Shown: positions 26,121 through 29,011 of the stretch, one piece after another
How the letters are laid out: each line of letters opens with the position of its first letter
Numbering within the stretch: position 1 is the stretch's first letter
Source: Escherichia phage BF17
Strand: one strand, 5' to 3'
Sequence record: MW822008.1
DNA: 64,000 bases
Translations under genes and position numbers: made by a program
The notes under the pieces: model-generated
The model's input: the letters and a program-made list of their open reading frames with translations, nothing else
Database searches by the model: none
What the model was told of the DNA's origin: nothing

Positions 26121-26252
26121 ATGAATGGACTAAAAAAGTTTGGTAAAGATTTTCTAAAGTGCATCCGTTATACATACGATGCCAACCCTGAAATGACTGC
26201 CATCGTGGGTGTGTTTATTACACTCGTTGTATTAAGCTTTATTGTGGTGTAA
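26121..26252 (+). CDS. small membrane protein (43 aa), below the ORF-track size cutoff
   Basis: ATG 26121 preceded by AAAGGAAAA; encodes MNGLKKFGKDFLKCIRYTYDANPEMTAIVGVFITLVVLSFIVV with a C-terminal TM helix; fills the gap between annotated ORFs. Confidence 0.4.
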   Translation: MNGLKKFGKDFLKCIRYTYDANPEMTAIVGVFITLVVLSFIVV

Positions 26253-26255
26253 AAT

Positions 26256-26459
26256 ATGATTGAAATTAATGCTGATGTATATTGTAGTGCATCACCCAAC
26301 TACTTCATTTATGCACTAAGTACATTTGGGGAAACTGAAGGTGAAACTTTTGTTTTAGTAGATAATACTACATGGTACAAAACAAGTAATAAAATTCCGA
26401 AAGATGTTTTGGAAACTTATGTTCGTATTGAAAATAAAAACATATATGTAAATTTATAG
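26256..26459 (+). CDS. hypothetical protein (67 aa)
   Basis: ORF track. Confidence 0.4.
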   Translation: MIEINADVYCSASPNYFIYALSTFGETEGETFVLVDNTTWYKTSNKIPKDVLETYVRIENKNIYVNL

Positions 26460-26466
26460 GTAAAAT

Positions 26467-26877
26467 ATGATTGAAATGGAAGGAACTCTGGTGTATGATC
26501 CAGATCGTGGCACTATGAAAAAGAAGAAGGACTTCTGGTTAGTACTACAACTTCCATTGCAGTTGGTTCGATACTACCAGTACTTCATCAGAACTAACTT
26601 ACATATTGATATTAAAGACCCACAATGGGGAGCACATGTCAGTATCGTTCGTGGTGAAGTGCCACCAAATCCAGAGTACTGGAAAAAGTACGATGGAATG
26701 AAAGTTAAGATTAAGTTCGATCCTTTCATCGAAGAAGTAAAAGACAATAAGAAACCTGGGTCATTCTTTATCATAGAGTTTGAAGATGATTTCATTGCAC
26801 AAATTCGTGATGAACTTGGTTTAGCATCTAAATATTTCAAATATCACATCACCATTGGTAGAACATACTACGATTAG
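26467..26877 (+). CDS. hypothetical protein (136 aa)
   Basis: ORF track. Confidence 0.5.
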   Translation: MIEMEGTLVYDPDRGTMKKKKDFWLVLQLPLQLVRYYQYFIRTNLHIDIKDPQWGAHVSIVRGEVPPNPEYWKKYDGMKVKIKFDPFIEEVKDNKKPGSFFIIEFEDDFIAQIRDELGLASKYFKYHITIGRTYYD

Positions 26878-27044
26878 TGTGGATATTTGGTAAATAGGTC
26901 TTGATATAACTAAAAAGTATGCTATACTACTTAAATGTTCCAAAGAACAACTGAGTACTGTAGAAAGTCCAATGAGGCTTTTGCAAATGGCCTCTTTGCC
27001 CTCTTTGTGATTGCTCATTGTTAACAACCAACAAAGGAGGCGTT

Positions 27045-27971
27045 TTGAAAAAAGCGAAAAAAGCACTGAAAACTAAAATTGCCATAGGCGTGTTAGTTTC
27101 ATCAGCCCTATTCGCTGCGATTGGATTTTATGGTTTTTCTCAAAGTGATCGTGCATCATCATTAGACGAAAGTCAGGTGCATAATTTAAAACCACAAGTT
27201 ACGCAAATTCAAAAGCAGGAACTACCACAGGTATCAGTACCAAAAGCAGTTCCAAGCAGCGAGAAACATTATACGGTTCAACCTGGAGATAGTTATTATT
27301 CTATTGCACAGAAATTTAAACCTAAAAATGTACAGATTGAAGATTATGTCATTTTGTTGAAGAACATCAACTTAAATGCAACTCTTCATACTTCTCAGGG
27401 TATCTTTATCCCAACAAAAGAGGATTTGAAGAACGTATTGTTACCAGATGTGACTGTACTGTTTGATTATAAAGATCCAGAAATTGTCAATCACATCAAA
27501 GAAGCTGAAGGTTCTATTGAATTTCAGTCCAAGAACAAACGACGTTTACTTGGTGGGAAAGTTGGAGTTCCTTTCCACAATTCTAAATTTCATCCCTATA
27601 AGGACATGAAAGGTAATTATACAATTGGTTATGGGCATTATTTGGGTAAGAAAGATTCTGATGCAATGAAGTACAGAAACGGGATTACCAAAGCACAGGC
27701 CAACAAACTTTTAATGCAAGATATGAAAAGGACTTACGAGGACTTTACACTATTGATGCAGAAGAAAGATGCAGTTAATCTGACAAAAGAACAGCAGCGT
27801 ATCCTGTTTGAAATGTCATACACAATGGGCGTTGATAAGTTGGCAACATTTAACAAACTATGGAAAAGTGTTAAAATGGATAACCCTAAGAAATTCAAGA
27901 AAGAAATCATGAATTCCTTGTGGTATCGCCAAGTTACAAACAGAGCGGATTTGTTGTTAAGCTCACTCTAA
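27045..27971 (+). CDS. T4-type lysozyme (GH24-like) with N-terminal membrane anchor and LysM domain
   Basis: TM segment IAIGVLVSSALFAAIGFYGF; LysM-like YTVQPGDSYYSIAQKF; C-terminal YKDMKGNYTIGYGHYL parallels T4 lysozyme YKDTEGYYTIGIGHLL, with candidate catalytic Glu in EAEGS upstream. Start taken as TTG 27045 after AAAGGAGG (ORF track 27018, also TTG). Confidence 0.6.
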   Translation: MKKAKKALKTKIAIGVLVSSALFAAIGFYGFSQSDRASSLDESQVHNLKPQVTQIQKQELPQVSVPKAVPSSEKHYTVQPGDSYYSIAQKFKPKNVQIEDYVILLKNINLNATLHTSQGIFIPTKEDLKNVLLPDVTVLFDYKDPEIVNHIKEAEGSIEFQSKNKRRLLGGKVGVPFHNSKFHPYKDMKGNYTIGYGHYLGKKDSDAMKYRNGITKAQANKLLMQDMKRTYEDFTLLMQKKDAVNLTKEQQRILFEMSYTMGVDKLATFNKLWKSVKMDNPKKFKKEIMNSLWYRQVTNRADLLLSSL

Positions 27972-27986
27972 AAAGGTAGGTAAATT

Positions 27987-28319
27987 ATGCTAAATCTAGT
28001 TATCCAAGGTAATGTTGATATTACTCCAGCAATCAATGACGCAATTCATGCTGAAGCAAATGCACTAACGAAGTTTAGTGATTCTTCAGTACTGCATATT
28101 GGTGTTCATGTGAAGAAAGAGCATAAGAATCAATATTTCGTAACTTTAACATCAGGCGGTAAGAGTGTTACAGCCGATGATGCAGATTTATACAAAGCAA
28201 TTGGTGATTCATTTGAAAAAATGGAAACTGTCTTAGGTAAAGACAAAAGCATCAAATTGTATCGCCGTAACCACCCCGAACATCCAGTTCAAGAAGACTT
28301 GACTGAAGACGAAGAGTAA
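27987..28319 (+). CDS. ribosome hibernation factor homolog (HPF/RaiA/YfiA family)
   Basis: LVIQGNVDITPAINDAIHAE...VHVKKEH...ADDADLYKAIGDSFEKME parallels E. coli HPF/RaiA (NITG.NVEITPAL...VEK..H...DMYAAIDGLIDKL). Confidence 0.55.
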   Translation: MLNLVIQGNVDITPAINDAIHAEANALTKFSDSSVLHIGVHVKKEHKNQYFVTLTSGGKSVTADDADLYKAIGDSFEKMETVLGKDKSIKLYRRNHPEHPVQEDLTEDEE

Positions 28320-28330
28320 GATATAATAAA

Positions 28331-28358
28331 GGGACAGAGATTATTCTGTCCCTTTTCT
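28331..28358 (+). terminator. intrinsic terminator
   Basis: Perfect hairpin GGGACAGA-gattat-TCTGTCCC followed by TTTTCTT. Confidence 0.7.
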
Positions 28359-28373
28359 TATGGAGTTTTAATT

Positions 28374-28790
28374 ATGAATTATGTTTGGGCAGATGTAGTA
28401 AAATCTCTCGTATCAACACATGATGTTGATTTACCAGATAGTCTGGTATTTAACAGATGGTACTATCCAAACCCAGAGGACTGTAACGTTGGAATTGGAT
28501 TTTTTATTAATGATAAATCTAATTTGTTTGGATTAATTGAAGATGAGACAAAATCCAACCTTATATTCTCGATTGAGTTGAATGCTGATCACATAAAATA
28601 CTACACCAATAAAATGGACGAAGACGATGGAGATGTTATAATCCCAGCAGAAATAGACGAAGCTTCATTTTTTCAGTTATCATTGATTTATGATCTATCT
28701 AACATTACTTATGATAATGTGAAAGACCTTTTTATATTGTACAATAAAATGTATAATTACTTTTTAAGACCTTTTTATATTGTACAATAA
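28374..28790 (+). CDS. hypothetical protein (138 aa); 3' end lies inside a 43-bp tandem duplication
   Basis: ORF track; the last 22 codons are encoded by the duplicated segment. Confidence 0.5.
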   Translation: MNYVWADVVKSLVSTHDVDLPDSLVFNRWYYPNPEDCNVGIGFFINDKSNLFGLIEDETKSNLIFSIELNADHIKYYTNKMDEDDGDVIIPAEIDEASFFQLSLIYDLSNITYDNVKDLFILYNKMYNYFLRPFYIVQ

Positions 28791-28809
28791 AATGTATAAT
28801 TACTTTTTA
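28724..28809. repeat. perfect 43-bp tandem direct duplication (2 copies)
   Basis: AGACCTTTTTATATTGTACAATAAAATGTATAATTACTTTTTA occurs at 28724-28766 and again at 28767-28809; unit contains palindrome TTGTACAA and a TATAAT hexamer. Confidence 0.9.
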
Positions 28810-28825
28810 TAACAGAGGAATTGTA

Positions 28826-29011
28826 ATGGAATATACCATATGTGTAATTGTATGTATCATAGCCTTACTCGCAGGAGTTGGTGTGATGATTTACTGTGAT
28901 GCGGAACCAAGTACTGAAGTAGGTACAACCATCACACTTAAACCTGGTGTTAAAATTAATGATACCTATTGCTACAATCCAAACACAAACCGCTATGAGA
29001 TTTGTTTATGA
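28826..29011 (+). CDS. small membrane protein (61 aa)
   Basis: N-terminal hydrophobic stretch ICVIVCIIALLAGVGVMIY; GAGG RBS. Confidence 0.45.
   Translation: MEYTICVIVCIIALLAGVGVMIYCDAEPSTEVGTTITLKPGVKINDTYCYNPNTNRYEICL

Follow-up and report, generated by a model that had tools for sequence, protein, structure and literature searches.

Does a jumbo coliphage keep its holin among its smallest genes? The question is raised by a stretch of 64,000 nucleotides, here called the window, from an Asteriusvirus jumbo coliphage of the 121Q/PBECO4 type with ~98.5% identity to vB_Ec-M-J. A sequence-only reading had remarked that the holin is not identified here, and the window indeed carries no annotated holin. 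That reading singled out three short open reading frames as small membrane-protein genes, and proposed them as candidates for a holin, an antiholin, or a protein of superinfection exclusion or immunity. All three lie where it had placed them:

24632..24856, plus strand: s74, a 74-aa protein; orthologue of 121Q gp525, PHROG 22328
26121..26252, plus strand: s43, a 43-aa tail-anchored protein; orthologue of 121Q gp529, PHROG 37784
28826..29011, plus strand: s61, a 61-aa protein; orthologue of 121Q gp535, PHROG 4189

The answer is an ordinary one. The three genes are genuine and conserved, and encode tiny inner-membrane proteins of a 121Q/PBECO4-type jumbo coliphage. They are not new, being catalogued already in public genomes as hypothetical proteins and in PHROGs of unknown function, and nothing shows s43, s61 or s74 to be the missing holin.

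Each frame opens with an ATG that follows a ribosome binding site by a spacer of 6 nt. For s43 (ATG 26121) the site is AAGGA at 26110-26114; for s74 (ATG 24632) it is GAGGA at 24621-24625, with the gene overlapping the thymidine kinase stop by 8 nt; for s61 (ATG 28826) it is GAGGA at 28815-28819. A mechanical list of open reading frames gives s43 a 48-aa form that starts at 26106. The ATG there is ATA in 121Q, SP27, ph0011 and UE-S1, however, and the 43-aa start is the conserved one.

Searched with tblastn, each of the three genes is matched in 35 of 35 Asteriusvirus records. Between s43 and its SP27 counterpart, the differences by codon position are 0/0/13 (P = 6e-7), all 13 being in third positions; against A4 they are 5/1/21. 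Synonymous sites in s43 are saturated (pS ~0.75), with pN at 0.06-0.085. In s61 omega lies at about 0.1-0.24, in s74 at about 0.2-0.5. Judged by these substitution patterns, all three genes are under purifying selection. That they are chance open frames in AT-rich DNA, never translated, is effectively refuted and hardly credible: although the six frames of the window hold 186 ATG-initiated ORFs of 43 aa or more, and T-rich codons likewise yield hydrophobic peptides, the third-position excess is frame-specific and omega is much lower than 1; all 10 relatives from which sequence was extracted keep each frame whole, with a start codon and a 5' SD-like purine run; and other genera have homologues that are 30-40% identical.

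Nor are the genes missing from public annotation; they are 121Q gp529 (s43), gp535 (s61) and gp525 (s74). Identity to these is 100% for s43, 87% for s61 and 81% for s74, with the same positions and lengths; the 121Q annotation places the start of gp525 at an internal Met6, and otherwise there is no substantial difference. Full-length profile matches assign them to their PHROGs with E = 9.7e-35 (s43), 5.7e-20 (s61) and 1.7e-34 (s74). The 60-aa cutoff by which the genes were said to have been missed could apply to s43 alone, since s61 and s74 are both longer than that. Individual records do vary. The s43 orthologue is unannotated in RaK2, K64-1 (AB897757) and RCIP0023; s61 is shortened to 41-42 aa in vB_Ec-M-J, UE-S1 and PBECO4, and is lacking from the annotation of ph0011.

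Conservation, selection and hydropathy together bear out the claim that these are genuine small membrane-protein genes. In s43, the maximum Kyte-Doolittle value (2.79, in a 19-residue window) falls at residues 25-43, which is to say at the C-terminus, where a transmembrane helix had been expected. Before it lie an amphipathic, basic N-terminal helix (muH 0.87) and an invariant N22-P23 kink, so that the transmembrane domain (TMD) closes the protein. The AF2 model (mean pLDDT 77.8) has a helix at 2-21, a break, and a helix at 23-42. The protein would be tail-anchored with its N-terminus inside, running from the amphipathic basic helix through the Asn-Pro kink into the TMD. Although synonymous sites have reached saturation, hardly a residue varies in either half, which points to a specific conserved partner.

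Homologues of s43 are found in Muenster, CBB, PHA46, XbC2 and fHe-Yen9-03. Besides Asteriusvirus, the family keeps its synteny in Alcyoneusvirus, Mimasvirus, Eneladusvirus and PHA46, and in the genera examined an s43-type gene always stands upstream of a 2H phosphoesterase and a TM-LysM-lysozyme. Pectobacterium phage CBB gp184, a GAP32 "putative membrane protein" (PHROG 22915) and Klebsiella phage Muenster gp263 have that same location. They are tail-anchored like s43, 44-46 aa long, and share with it an MK/N-x-x-R/K-N start, an [ST]-x-x-x-N-P kink and a C-terminal TMD. They differ in belonging to a different PHROG and in an identity to s43 of only ~30%, and tblastn made no direct connection between them and s43. 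Profile comparison does (hhalign probability 81%, E = 1.2e-5), and the 44-aa Muenster protein bridges PHROGs 22915 (3e-6) and 37784 (5e-4).

The second protein, s74, had been described as having two transmembrane segments and as similar to the others. Its hydrophobic stretch, residues 19-66, is indeed split by an HFVP turn into two TMDs; the similarity holds for the kind of protein and fails for sequence, there being none among the three. An amphipathic N-terminal helix precedes the TMDs, an invariant LHFVPxW turn lies between them, and the tail REALDDDNV (1 basic, 5 acidic residues) keeps its acidity across the family. The Muenster homologue, CPT_Muenster_258, falls in the same PHROG (8.6e-40) and carries a TMHMM annotation of 2 TMDs, N-in/C-in. 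In s74 itself the two helices would form an N-in/C-in hairpin, with the conserved acidic tail in the cytoplasm. When its profile was run against 1.84 billion representatives, s74 was linked to its own family only (4 clusters), and this family is limited to Asteriusvirus and Alcyoneusvirus. Directly 3' of the gene, the unit of thymidine kinase and s74 comes to an end, at a position matching that of a terminator annotated in UE-S1:

24865..24883, plus strand: terminator-like hairpin and T-run, ending the tk-s74 transcription unit

In s61 the maximum Kyte-Doolittle value (2.94, 19-residue window) is at residues 4-22, in agreement with the N-terminal transmembrane segment proposed for it. After this TMD or signal anchor come a linker and a C-terminal beta-hairpin with invariant C49 and C60; the AF2 model (mean pLDDT 66) shows a helix at 2-25 and strands at 48-51 and 56-59. 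The protein would be inserted N-in/C-out, or else secreted, its 36-residue periplasmic tail ending in the two-Cys beta-hairpin, where a disulfide might join C49 to C60. The gene is a mobile, accessory one, variable in position, with its TMD swapped in WPEC3 and with homologues in T4-like Klebsiella phages, where its neighbours are of replication type (helicase, DexA exonuclease, topoisomerase large subunit). In Jiaodavirus KPV15 the homologue lies just 5' of the topoisomerase large-subunit gene, after dda/dexA-type genes. The best guess at its function is one of envelope or superinfection-exclusion type. The protein has no lipobox, for A4 and WPEC3 lack the Cys that precedes DAEP.

What lysis genes, then, does the phage have? 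Those recognized in the window are these:

17269-17643, plus strand: i-spanin, 124 aa; translation matches 121Q gp511 (PMC6139136 supplement)
17640-17948, plus strand: o-spanin lipoprotein, 102 aa; translation matches 121Q gp512 (PMC6139136 supplement)
27045..27971, plus strand: LysM-lysozyme, 308 aa, starting at a TTG that follows AAGGAGG; homologue of 121Q gp532 and CBB_187

The sequences of gp511 and gp512 are listed in the supplement of Kongari et al. 2018 (PMC6139136), and their counterparts here, lysis genes with an established assignment in this phage group, lie 9 kb upstream. The i-spanin of a two-component system has an N-terminal TMD, a periplasmic coiled-coil (91 residues in 121Q) and an adjacent o-spanin lipoprotein gene. 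An i-spanin role for s61 was rejected on this ground; its periplasmic part is ~36 residues, and the spanins are already assigned at 17269-17948.

The lysozyme has Pfam matches to Phage_lysozyme (E = 2e-11) and LysM (E = 1e-4), and when aligned to T4 lysozyme its GH24 T4-type domain retains the Glu/Asp/Thr motif. Its TMD, IAIGVLVSSALFAAIGFYGF, is weakly hydrophobic and 45% Gly/Ala/Ser/Thr, with a mean Kyte-Doolittle value of 2.05, compared with 2.1-2.8 for the TMDs of the small proteins. A SAR endolysin has been proposed for lysozymes of the 121Q gp532/CBB_187 type (PMC5259590), and the present one is a predicted SAR-type (signal-anchor) endolysin. Enzymes of that class bear, behind a short basic segment, a weakly hydrophobic N-terminal TMD rich in Gly, Ala and Ser, have a muralytic domain with its catalytic residues, and come free of the membrane. 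The N-terminus, MKKAKKALKTK, is polybasic and by prediction cytoplasmic; with its six Lys, spontaneous release from the membrane would be disfavoured. In phAPEC6, the lysozyme Gp293, whose gene spacing suggests that it is the counterpart of this protein, was not detected in the virion by mass spectrometry.

Relatives fill in the rest. UE-S1 encodes LysUE1, a soluble 162-aa T4-type lysozyme that is muralytic in vitro. In fEgEco12, a 220-aa protein with an N-terminal TMD is annotated as holin on a weak HHpred match to T4 T (E = 2.6), and has no Pfam match; because that call is weak, the group is effectively still without a firmly assigned holin. Otherwise a T4-like lysis set (T-like candidate, soluble lysozyme, spanins) is largely accounted for.

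The small genes share their neighbourhood with the following:

25725..25753, plus strand: promoter-like site, sigma70-type extended -10 (TGcTATAAT), 5' of the o118-s43-o67-2H operon
25765..26109, plus strand: 114-aa gene, PHROG 4848, upstream of s43
26256..26459, plus strand: 67-aa gene, PHROG 23174, next to s43 in Asteriusvirus and Muenster, absent in Turkey5
26467..26877, plus strand: 136-aa 2H phosphoesterase with two HxS/T motifs (HVSI, HITI)
26901..26928, plus strand: promoter-like site (TTGATA, 16 nt, TGcTATACT), conserved, 5' of the lysozyme leader
26959..26994, plus strand: leader element, an invariant box TGTAGAAAGTCC and a 5-bp hairpin
27987..28319, plus strand: HPF/RaiA-type ribosome hibernation factor, in synteny with the lysozyme in the majority of the relatives examined
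28299..28355, no strand given: promoter-like TTGACT, 17 nt, TATAAT (11/12 matches), then a terminator-like hairpin; 5' of the s61-containing operon

Nucleotide-metabolism, RNA-repair, translation and anti-defence-like genes are also carried on the plus strand of this block, and host promoters of sigma70 type seem to drive its transcription. The site at 25725-25753 is kept in 8 of 8 aligned relatives. Across the window, TGNTATAAT occurs 14 times against 6.95 expected, 13 of the 14 on the plus (coding) strand; the promoter scan overall is at chance level for AT-rich DNA (35 against 36.4 expected). The T4-type late motif TATAAATA occurs once in the window where 8.3 are expected, and not near s43, s61 or s74.

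Some details of these neighbours may be added. The 114-aa gene bears in fEgEco12 the label "SAM hydrolase", from a weak HHpred match alone (E = 11, probability 88%); a PDB sequence search with it gave no match. In the lysozyme leader, GAGGC (26974-26978) pairs with GCCTC (26990-26994), and the hairpin is a covarying one. Muenster has no HPF/RaiA-type gene after its lysozyme. The hairpin at 28328-28355 was scored on the minus strand, and a T-run follows on the plus strand too; in UE-S1 a terminator is annotated at the position that matches the 28299-28355 element.

s43 is tied more closely to the 2H phosphoesterase than to the lysozyme: in each of the genera examined, at most one gene stands between the two, with a varying upstream neighbour and a varying distance to the lysozyme. 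Perhaps s43 is a partner of this enzyme in an anti-defence or RNA-repair operon unconnected to lysis, serving (for example) to bring 2H activity to the membrane or to counter a membrane-acting defence effector. The enzyme has homologues in CBB, Muenster and PHA46. Beyond its two motifs, it shows a Pfam 2H-SAK match at E = 7e-5, below cutoff, and according to the fEgEco12 supplement HHpred matches it to Acb1, an anti-CBASS nuclease (7T26_A, 97.6%); the CBB block contains, in addition, an RNA ligase, a DUF2828 RNA-binding protein, HPF and a CCA-adding enzyme. This is guilt by association, however, within a block whose order is generally conserved, and in fHe-Yen9-03 the annotation puts a predicted promoter between s43 and the 2H gene. 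No 2H or Acb1 system is known to require a membrane partner. The partnership is, on this evidence, doubtful.

A role in lysis control survives somewhat better, and is still unlikely. Here, one or more of s43, s61 and s74 would govern the membrane-tethered LysM-lysozyme, in a dispersed system with the spanins 9 kb away; s74 would be a pinholin-type class II holin or releasin-like, and s43 an antiholin or a retention or release factor. The SAR-like TMD of the lysozyme speaks for this, as do the 6 Lys of its cytoplasmic N-terminus and the conserved acidic cytoplasmic tail of s74. In phage Mu, owing to basic residues in this N-terminal segment, the SAR endolysin needs for its release a membrane-tethered protein whose cytoplasmic domain is anionic (PMC9239132). 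Asteriusvirus and Alcyoneusvirus, which carry s74, have the most basic lysozyme N-termini (~+6 and ~+5, against ~+3 in CBB and ~+1 in PHA46), although this phyletic correlation amounts to one pair of sister clades. The N-in/C-in topology of the Muenster homologue fits as well, and synteny of s43-type genes with the lysozyme extends over five genera; the gene order of the whole block is likewise conserved, however, and s43 is tied more tightly to the 2H gene.

Holins are small proteins that have one or more TMDs and, in the cytoplasm, a C-terminal domain that is charged and as a rule basic. Here, the tail of s74 is acidic, s43 ends with its TMD, and the C-terminus of s61 is by prediction periplasmic. 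A dual-start holin/antiholin motif is common, though not universal, among holins. Most Asteriusvirus genomes have both Met1 and Met6 in s74, but ph0011, JNE01, Turkey5 and A4 have Leu in place of Met6, and Muenster lacks it; among the relatives aligned the motif is not conserved, and what the longer form gains is an Asp rather than a basic residue. The TMDs of s74 are very hydrophobic. None of the three genes lies in a lysis cassette: s43 and s61 each have two genes between them and the lysozyme, and s74 is six genes and 2.2 kb 5' of it, with the terminator-like hairpin between. No match to holin, antiholin, Imm, Sp, Sie or releasin families was found for any of them in Pfam (E <= 1), PHROGs (E <= 10), NCBIfam or PADLOC. 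The T-like candidate, a soluble E-like lysozyme and the spanins could, moreover, already suffice. A lysis role for s74 or s43 is unsupported.

A more elaborate form of the idea, itself rather improbable, is that Rak2-like jumbo phages control the membrane-tethered LysM-lysozyme in two layers, with no classical adjacent holin. In the first, small membrane proteins would act on the polybasic cytoplasmic N-terminus or the SAR-like TMD, s74 with its acidic tail being releasin-like or a pinholin, and the invariant s43 a retention or release partner. In the second, the leader hairpin and conserved box in the lysozyme mRNA would serve as a translational or stability operator.

On balance, the explanation leaned towards is that these are three unrelated inner-membrane proteins of the Rak2-like lineage, accessory products of early or middle expression that bind partners at the inner membrane, and probably not a lysis-timing holin. 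They would act in host take-over, envelope modification or exclusion. The conserved extended -10 sites 5' of the s43 operon and of the lysozyme argue for this view. Against it, the same plus-strand block also holds the spanins and the predicted SAR endolysin; since bona fide lysis genes lie there, the location of the small genes does not exclude a lysis role. Of the four strongly hydrophobic small ORFs on the plus strand between 1 and 53 kb, three are within 2.5 kb of the lysozyme. The proposal of holin, antiholin or exclusion candidates therefore keeps its footing in the small membrane proteins around a predicted SAR-type lysozyme and in the topology of s74, and loses it in the lack of a family match and in the context of all three genes. 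"Candidates" was a fair word, with the holin reading the less likely one.

How do these proteins compare with known systems? The phage Mu releasin gp25 (DUF2730) is membrane-tethered, has an anionic cytoplasmic part and acts on a SAR endolysin with a basic N-terminus (PMC9239132). With it s74 shares the acidic cytoplasmic tail, near a lysozyme that begins with MKKAKKALKTK; Pfam gave no DUF2730 match among s43, s61 and s74. By the criteria of that work (PMC9239132), s74 was set aside as a Mu-type releasin, having two TMDs, an acidic tail of 9 residues and a gene upstream of the lysozyme.

The class II holins and pinholins, such as S68 of phage 21, are like s74 in size (74 aa), in having two TMDs, and in topology, the N-in/C-in arrangement predicted for s74 being exactly theirs; here, too, a lysozyme predicted to be of SAR type is encoded nearby. 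Unlike them, s74 has an acidic rather than a basic tail, no conserved dual start, a TMD1 that is not SAR-like and a gene apart from endolysin and spanins, and no sequence or family match joins it to the S68 type.

T4 Imm, Sp and RI are small proteins of the inner membrane or periplasm, and their genes are scattered and non-structural. Imm has two TMDs; in Sp and RI a periplasmic domain follows an N-terminal TMD or signal. No sequence relationship of s74 or s61 to these is detectable in PHROG or Pfam, and the periplasmic part of s61 is only ~36 residues. In topology alone, which is not specific, s74 has the two TMDs of Imm, and s61 the arrangement of Sp and RI, together with homologues in T4-like phages.

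The three small open reading frames that a sequence-only reading had proposed as membrane-protein genes were all found where it had placed them. Here they are called s74, s43 and s61 after the lengths of their products, and each is preceded by a Shine-Dalgarno (SD) site.

24621-24625, + strand: GAGGA, SD site of s74, 6 nt before the ATG
24632-24856, + strand: s74, 74 aa, overlapping the stop codon of the thymidine kinase gene
26110-26114, + strand: AAGGA, SD site of s43, 6 nt before the ATG
26121-26252, + strand: s43, 43 aa
28815-28819, + strand: GAGGA, SD site of s61, 6 nt before the ATG
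28826-29011, + strand: s61, 61 aa

Each frame is present in all 35 Asteriusvirus records (tblastn). All three are intact in the ten of ten relatives with extracted sequence, with lengths within 3 residues and with the start codon and an SD-like site kept. The differences in s43 by codon position (1/2/3) number 0/0/13 against SP27, 0/0/11 against 121Q and 5/1/21 against A4. By the Nei-Gojobori method, non-synonymous changes in s43 are zero against five phages at a synonymous divergence of 0.11-0.70; in comparisons with saturated synonymous sites, pN is 0.06-0.085. The s43 protein is 100% identical in 30 of the 35 records; in the same phages, the lysozyme encoded nearby is 79-90% identical and the HPF homologue 75-84%. 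For s61 omega is about 0.1-0.24, and for s74 about 0.2-0.5. Because the substitutions are frame-specific, omega and pN are low and the frames stay intact in relatives, the explanation that these are chance ORFs is rejected. All three are genes. The start chosen for the 43-aa protein was also correct: the upstream ATG at 26106, which is the start in a mechanical ORF list and in the PBECO4 annotation, is ATA in 121Q, SP27, ph0011 and UE-S1. The suggestion that a 60-aa cutoff had hidden these genes holds for s43 alone, s61 and s74 not being below 60 aa.

The three genes are not new. They correspond to 121Q gp529 (s43), gp535 (s61) and gp525 (s74). Most relatives list their products as hypothetical proteins, and the PHROGs to which they belong (37784, 4189 and 22328, respectively) have no assigned function. 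The annotation is uneven. The s43 orthologue goes without annotation in the RaK2, K64-1 (AB897757) and RCIP0023 records, and s61 is annotated as a protein of 41-42 aa, its TMD lost, in vB_Ec-M-J, UE-S1 and PBECO4, and is missing from the ph0011 annotation. In fEgEco12 the s43 orthologue carries the label "nucleocapsid protein," which goes back to HHpred pairing its TM helix with Chikungunya E2 at E = 4.6; the label is spurious. As matters stand, the analysis is mainly an annotation clean-up of small significance, one that corrects the 43-aa and 61-aa starts, identifies the unannotated orthologues in RaK2 and K64-1, and merges PHROGs 37784 and 22915.

The interval 24000-29500 matched 35 phage records by megablast, of 310-386 kb, all of them 121Q/PBECO4-group jumbo coliphages of Asteriusvirus type or Salmonella phages; the best match was vB_Ec-M-J, with 98.5% identity across the full query. 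The + strand of the window forms a single long co-oriented block from 1 to about 52.6 kb, which near the three frames encodes a thymidine kinase, a LysM-lysozyme, an HPF/RaiA homologue, a CCA-adding enzyme, a NUDIX hydrolase and a glutaredoxin. The thymidine kinase gene (24055-24639) is also found in vB_Ec-M-J, UE-S1, ph0011, Turkey5, A4, WPEC3, fEgEco12 and Muenster. In 121Q, PBECO4 and SP27 there is no copy at the s74 site, and the preceding gene is followed directly by s74; this presence or absence before s74 is an insertion/deletion polymorphism. The block holds a further conserved gene below 60 aa (29836-29958), whose 40-aa acidic product has no TMD and starts MIAMLEEDWGVSE; it is annotated among relatives, as 121Q gp538, and has a 47-aa homologue in PHA46.

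The motif TGNTATAAT occurs 14 times in the window against 6.95 expected, a count that none of 100 shuffles reached. Thirteen of the 14 copies are on the coding (+) strand, several within intergenic gaps. The T4-type late motif TATAAATA is depleted, with one copy (3840-3847) against 8.3 expected and none near the three ORFs. This suggests transcription by the host RNA polymerase, early or middle. We infer this timing only, because a generic promoter scan performed at chance level, conserved sites alone being used, and because real lysis genes lie in the same block. The best regional sigma70 match (TTGACT, 17 nt, TATAAT; 11/12) lies in 28299-28355 and ends where a terminator-like hairpin (28328-28355, scored on the - strand) starts. 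Transcripts from this site would begin within the hairpin and would escape it.

In s43, an N-terminal segment that is basic and amphipathic (maximum muH 0.87 at K6-R16; among residues 1-24, 5 are basic and 3 acidic) is followed by a TMD of 19 residues (mean KD 2.79) that extends to the final residue. AlphaFold2, using a small alignment, models helices at 2-21 and 23-42 with a break at N22-P23 (mean pLDDT 77.8). Word-indexed searches of 5.8 billion proteins with the three proteins returned close relatives only (6, 13 and 17 clusters). A gene of s43 type, encoding 44-46 aa, nevertheless lies 1-3 genes upstream of the homologous lysozyme gene in Klebsiella phage Muenster (Alcyoneusvirus), Pectobacterium phage CBB and Xanthomonas phage XbC2 (Mimasvirus), Yersinia phage fHe-Yen9-03 (Eneladusvirus) and Salmonella phage PHA46. 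These proteins have in common the start MK/N-x-[LVI]-[RK]-[NK], a [ST]-x-x-x-N-P kink and a C-terminal TMD. This group and the Asteriusvirus s43 proteins align in hhalign with a probability of 81% (E = 1.2e-5), and the Muenster protein, for which TMHMM in the Center for Phage Technology annotation gives "1 TMD; N-in, C-out," matches both PHROG 22915 (3e-6) and PHROG 37784 (5e-4). By its synteny and profile matches across genera, s43 belongs to the core genes of the Rak2-like clade, and it is very strongly constrained.

The s43 operon is compact, with s43 between the genes o118 and o67 and a gene for a 2H phosphoesterase after them. It is preceded by an extended -10 element, TGcTATAAT, kept in all eight relatives aligned there. 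The 2H phosphoesterase (26467-26877, + strand) has 136 aa and two HxS/T motifs, GAHVSIV and YHITIG, with a sub-threshold Pfam match to 2H-SAK; its homologues adjoin the s43-type gene, or lie one gene from it, in all genera examined. In GenBank, fEgEco12 labels it "viral L protein," and the fEgEco12 supplement reports an HHpred match (97.6%) to the anti-CBASS nuclease Acb1. PDB sequence searches gave no match for either s43 neighbour, and the HHpred links to Acb1 and to SAM hydrolase, which were not reproduced, are given as reported only.

The s61 protein has a different build. An N-terminal TMD (KD 2.94 at residues 4-22) is followed by an acidic, Thr/Asn-rich tail. AlphaFold2, again with a small alignment, models a helix at 2-25 and, beyond a linker of low confidence, a beta-hairpin (48-51/56-59) with C49 and C60 on adjacent strands (mean pLDDT 66). 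The predicted models of s43 and s61 both agree with the architecture seen in hydropathy. At this locus s61 is specific to Asteriusvirus, and PHROG 4189 also holds proteins of 65-69 aa from T4-like Klebsiella and Serratia phages, at 35-37% identity. The homologue in Jiaodavirus KPV15 retains the N-terminal hydrophobic segment and the motif G-V-K-I-x-D-x-x-C-x-N-P-x-T-x-x-x-x-[IV]-C; it is encoded just upstream of the topoisomerase large-subunit gene and downstream of dda-/dexA-type genes. In Turkey5 (locus 7423-7608) and JNE01 (locus 8331-8516), s61 lies directly upstream of the gene for the CCA-adding enzyme. In WPEC3 (locus 6753-6932), an unrelated N-terminal hydrophobic segment replaces the TMD, the C-terminal tail being identical. 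The s61 gene is mosaic and behaves as a mobile accessory gene.

A predicted lipoprotein of 82 aa (MKKILITALAFMMIGC...; KPV15 locus 3169-3417) precedes the KPV15 homologue, the two making a pair of small, predicted envelope-targeted genes before the topoisomerase large-subunit gene. That s61 is itself a lipoprotein or a spanin is rejected, since it has no conserved lipobox Cys and its periplasmic part is short. A signal-peptide cleavage site is plausible in KPV15 (SLA|D), but in A4 and WPEC3 the residue at -1 is not a small one. Upstream of s61 is a perfect 43-nt tandem duplication (28723-28808, AAGACCTTTTTATATTGTACAATAAAATGTATAATTACTTTTT twice), which spans the end of the ORF at 28374-28790 and the region before s61, and which lengthens a 126-aa protein by 12 residues. 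Two copies are present in vB_Ec-M-J and A4; 121Q has one near-identical stretch, and fEgEco12 has the core in single copy.

The third protein, s74, begins with an amphipathic segment (muH 0.74); two TMDs linked by HFVP follow, and then the tail REALDDDNV. Its family was found only in Asteriusvirus and Alcyoneusvirus (44 phage records), and when 1.84 billion representatives were searched exhaustively with its profile, four family clusters and one repetitive false positive were returned. Muenster gp258 is a member (PHROG 22328, 8.6e-40), with two TMDs, N-in/C-in, by TMHMM. Conserved in the family are an L-[HN]-[FY]-V-P-x-W turn and the acidic tail beyond TMD2. A terminator-like hairpin (24865-24883), annotated in UE-S1 as well, closes the s74 transcription unit, and s74 lies six genes upstream of the lysozyme.

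The lysis genes in the block include that lysozyme and a spanin pair.

17269-17643, + strand: i-spanin
17640-17948, + strand: o-spanin, overlapping the i-spanin gene by 4 nt
27045-27971, + strand: lysozyme with TMD, LysM and GH24 domains

The lysozyme starts at a TTG after AAGGAGG, the start annotated in all relatives. Its N-terminus MKKAKKALKTK leads into a TMD rich in Gly, Ala and Ser (mean KD 2.05, with 45% small residues), after which come LysM and the GH24 lysozyme domain (Pfam LysM 1e-4; Phage_lysozyme 2e-11), in which the catalytic-motif Glu, Asp and Thr of T4 lysozyme are retained. Homologues are 121Q gp532, CBB_187, GAP32 gp180 and RaK2 gp506; Buttimer et al. proposed that these are signal-arrest-release (SAR) endolysins and observed that the protein was toxic upon induction (PMC5259590). 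In phAPEC6 a second lysozyme, Gp293, went undetected in virions, and to judge from gene spacing it would be the counterpart of the one here. The spanin genes match the listed sequences of gp511 and gp512, which Kongari et al. (2018) assigned as the spanins of 121Q/PBECO4 (PMC6139136); fEgEco12 names the pair "cell division protein FtsB" and "lytic conversion lipoprotein."

Relatives also encode, outside the window, a soluble T4-type lysozyme of 162 aa. The fEgEco12 copy adjoins genes for a baseplate-hub lysozyme and a gp25-like protein, and the UE-S1 enzyme, LysUE1, is muralytic in vitro. A copy inside the window is rejected, T4 lysozyme having tblastn matches only at 27597-27977. The UE-S1 maps stop before ORF 534, at the gp25-like UES1_533, and the gene for the 162-aa lysozyme therefore lies beyond the window.

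The 167-nt leader of the lysozyme gene is conserved above the level of the flanking coding DNA. Within 26901-27044 is a promoter-like sigma70 site (TTGATA, 16 nt, TGcTATACT), then a box and then a hairpin.

26959-26970: box TGTAGAAAGTCC, invariant in most genera and unique in the window
26974-26978 with 26990-26994: arms of a 5-bp hairpin

The stem reads GAGGC/GCCTC in Asteriusvirus and PHA46, GCGAC/GTCGC in CBB and XbC2, GTGGC/GCCAC in Muenster, and GCGGC/GTCGC in a 358-kb IMG/VR contig, the one relevant hit of a scan with the 14-mer TGTAGAAAGTCCAA that gave mostly chance matches. Across nine sequences 45 of 45 cells pair, against 22-56% in slid controls, and two of the five pairs are changed on both sides. 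Covariation scores 0.433 here and 0.155 in shuffles, of which none of 500 reaches the observed value. Since independent lineages are few, this hairpin is a lead and not a result; fHe-Yen9-03 does not have the stem. Possibly the box pairs instead with the 5' arm and loop of the hairpin. The leader has no Rfam match, its fold energy is unremarkable (z = -0.97), and the minimum free energy fold leaves the SD unsequestered, so an anti-SD model is not favoured. One possible role of the element is that of an operator, translational or for stability, of the membrane-tethered lysozyme.

Searches of Pfam, NCBIfam, PADLOC and PHROGs (the last at both E <= 0.01 and E <= 10) placed none of the three proteins in a functional family, and no match to a holin, antiholin, Imm, Sp, Sie or releasin was found for them or their distant homologues (Pfam, PHROGs to E = 10, NCBIfam, PADLOC). 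The sequence-only reading, which offered holin, antiholin and exclusion roles, is fair as a list of candidates; its holin reading is unsupported. In size and topology s74 is like a class II holin, but four features speak against that class: its acidic tail, a second Met that is not conserved, its place at the close of a transcription unit, and its distance of six genes from the lysozyme. It was right that the holin is not identified. [quoted passage not shown] A T-like protein, an E-like lysozyme and the spanins would plausibly make a complete T4-like lysis system.

The explanation that we favour, with moderate confidence, treats the proteins separately. Here, s43 would be a clade-wide, highly constrained tail-anchored protein that has a specific partner. 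The mini-protein s61 would be mobile and face the periplasm, and its type is plausibly exclusion or envelope; s74 would be a helical hairpin bearing an acidic cytoplasmic tail. Counting against an accessory reading, of the four strongly hydrophobic small + strand ORFs in 1-53 kb, three are no more than 2.5 kb from the lysozyme. The sole other one, at 941-1057, has 38 aa and two overlapping hydrophobic segments (MRLAKLVIGCSALAAYMLFSAPTNVLLLIWAVVILAVL).

An unlikely but more consequential explanation is that one or more of these proteins act on the membrane-tethered lysozyme to control lysis. Were that so, the importance would be greater, as the holin of this 350-kb phage group is still not established. 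To our knowledge, gp25 of phage Mu is the sole non-holin factor described for SAR release. Release of the Mu SAR endolysin needs gp25, which is tethered to the membrane and has an anionic domain in the cytoplasm, and this dependence is due to two Lys in the endolysin's short cytoplasmic N-terminus (PMC9239132). Here, six Lys precede the lysozyme TMD, and the predicted topology sets the conserved acidic tail of s74 at the cytoplasmic face. The s74 family is, further, limited to the two genera with the most basic lysozyme N-termini (Asteriusvirus about +6, Muenster about +5), those elsewhere being less basic (CBB about +3, PHA46 about +1). This correlation amounts to one sister-clade pair, not membership. 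Nor is s74 built like Mu gp25: it lacks a DUF2730 domain, has two TMDs and only a short tail, and is encoded upstream.
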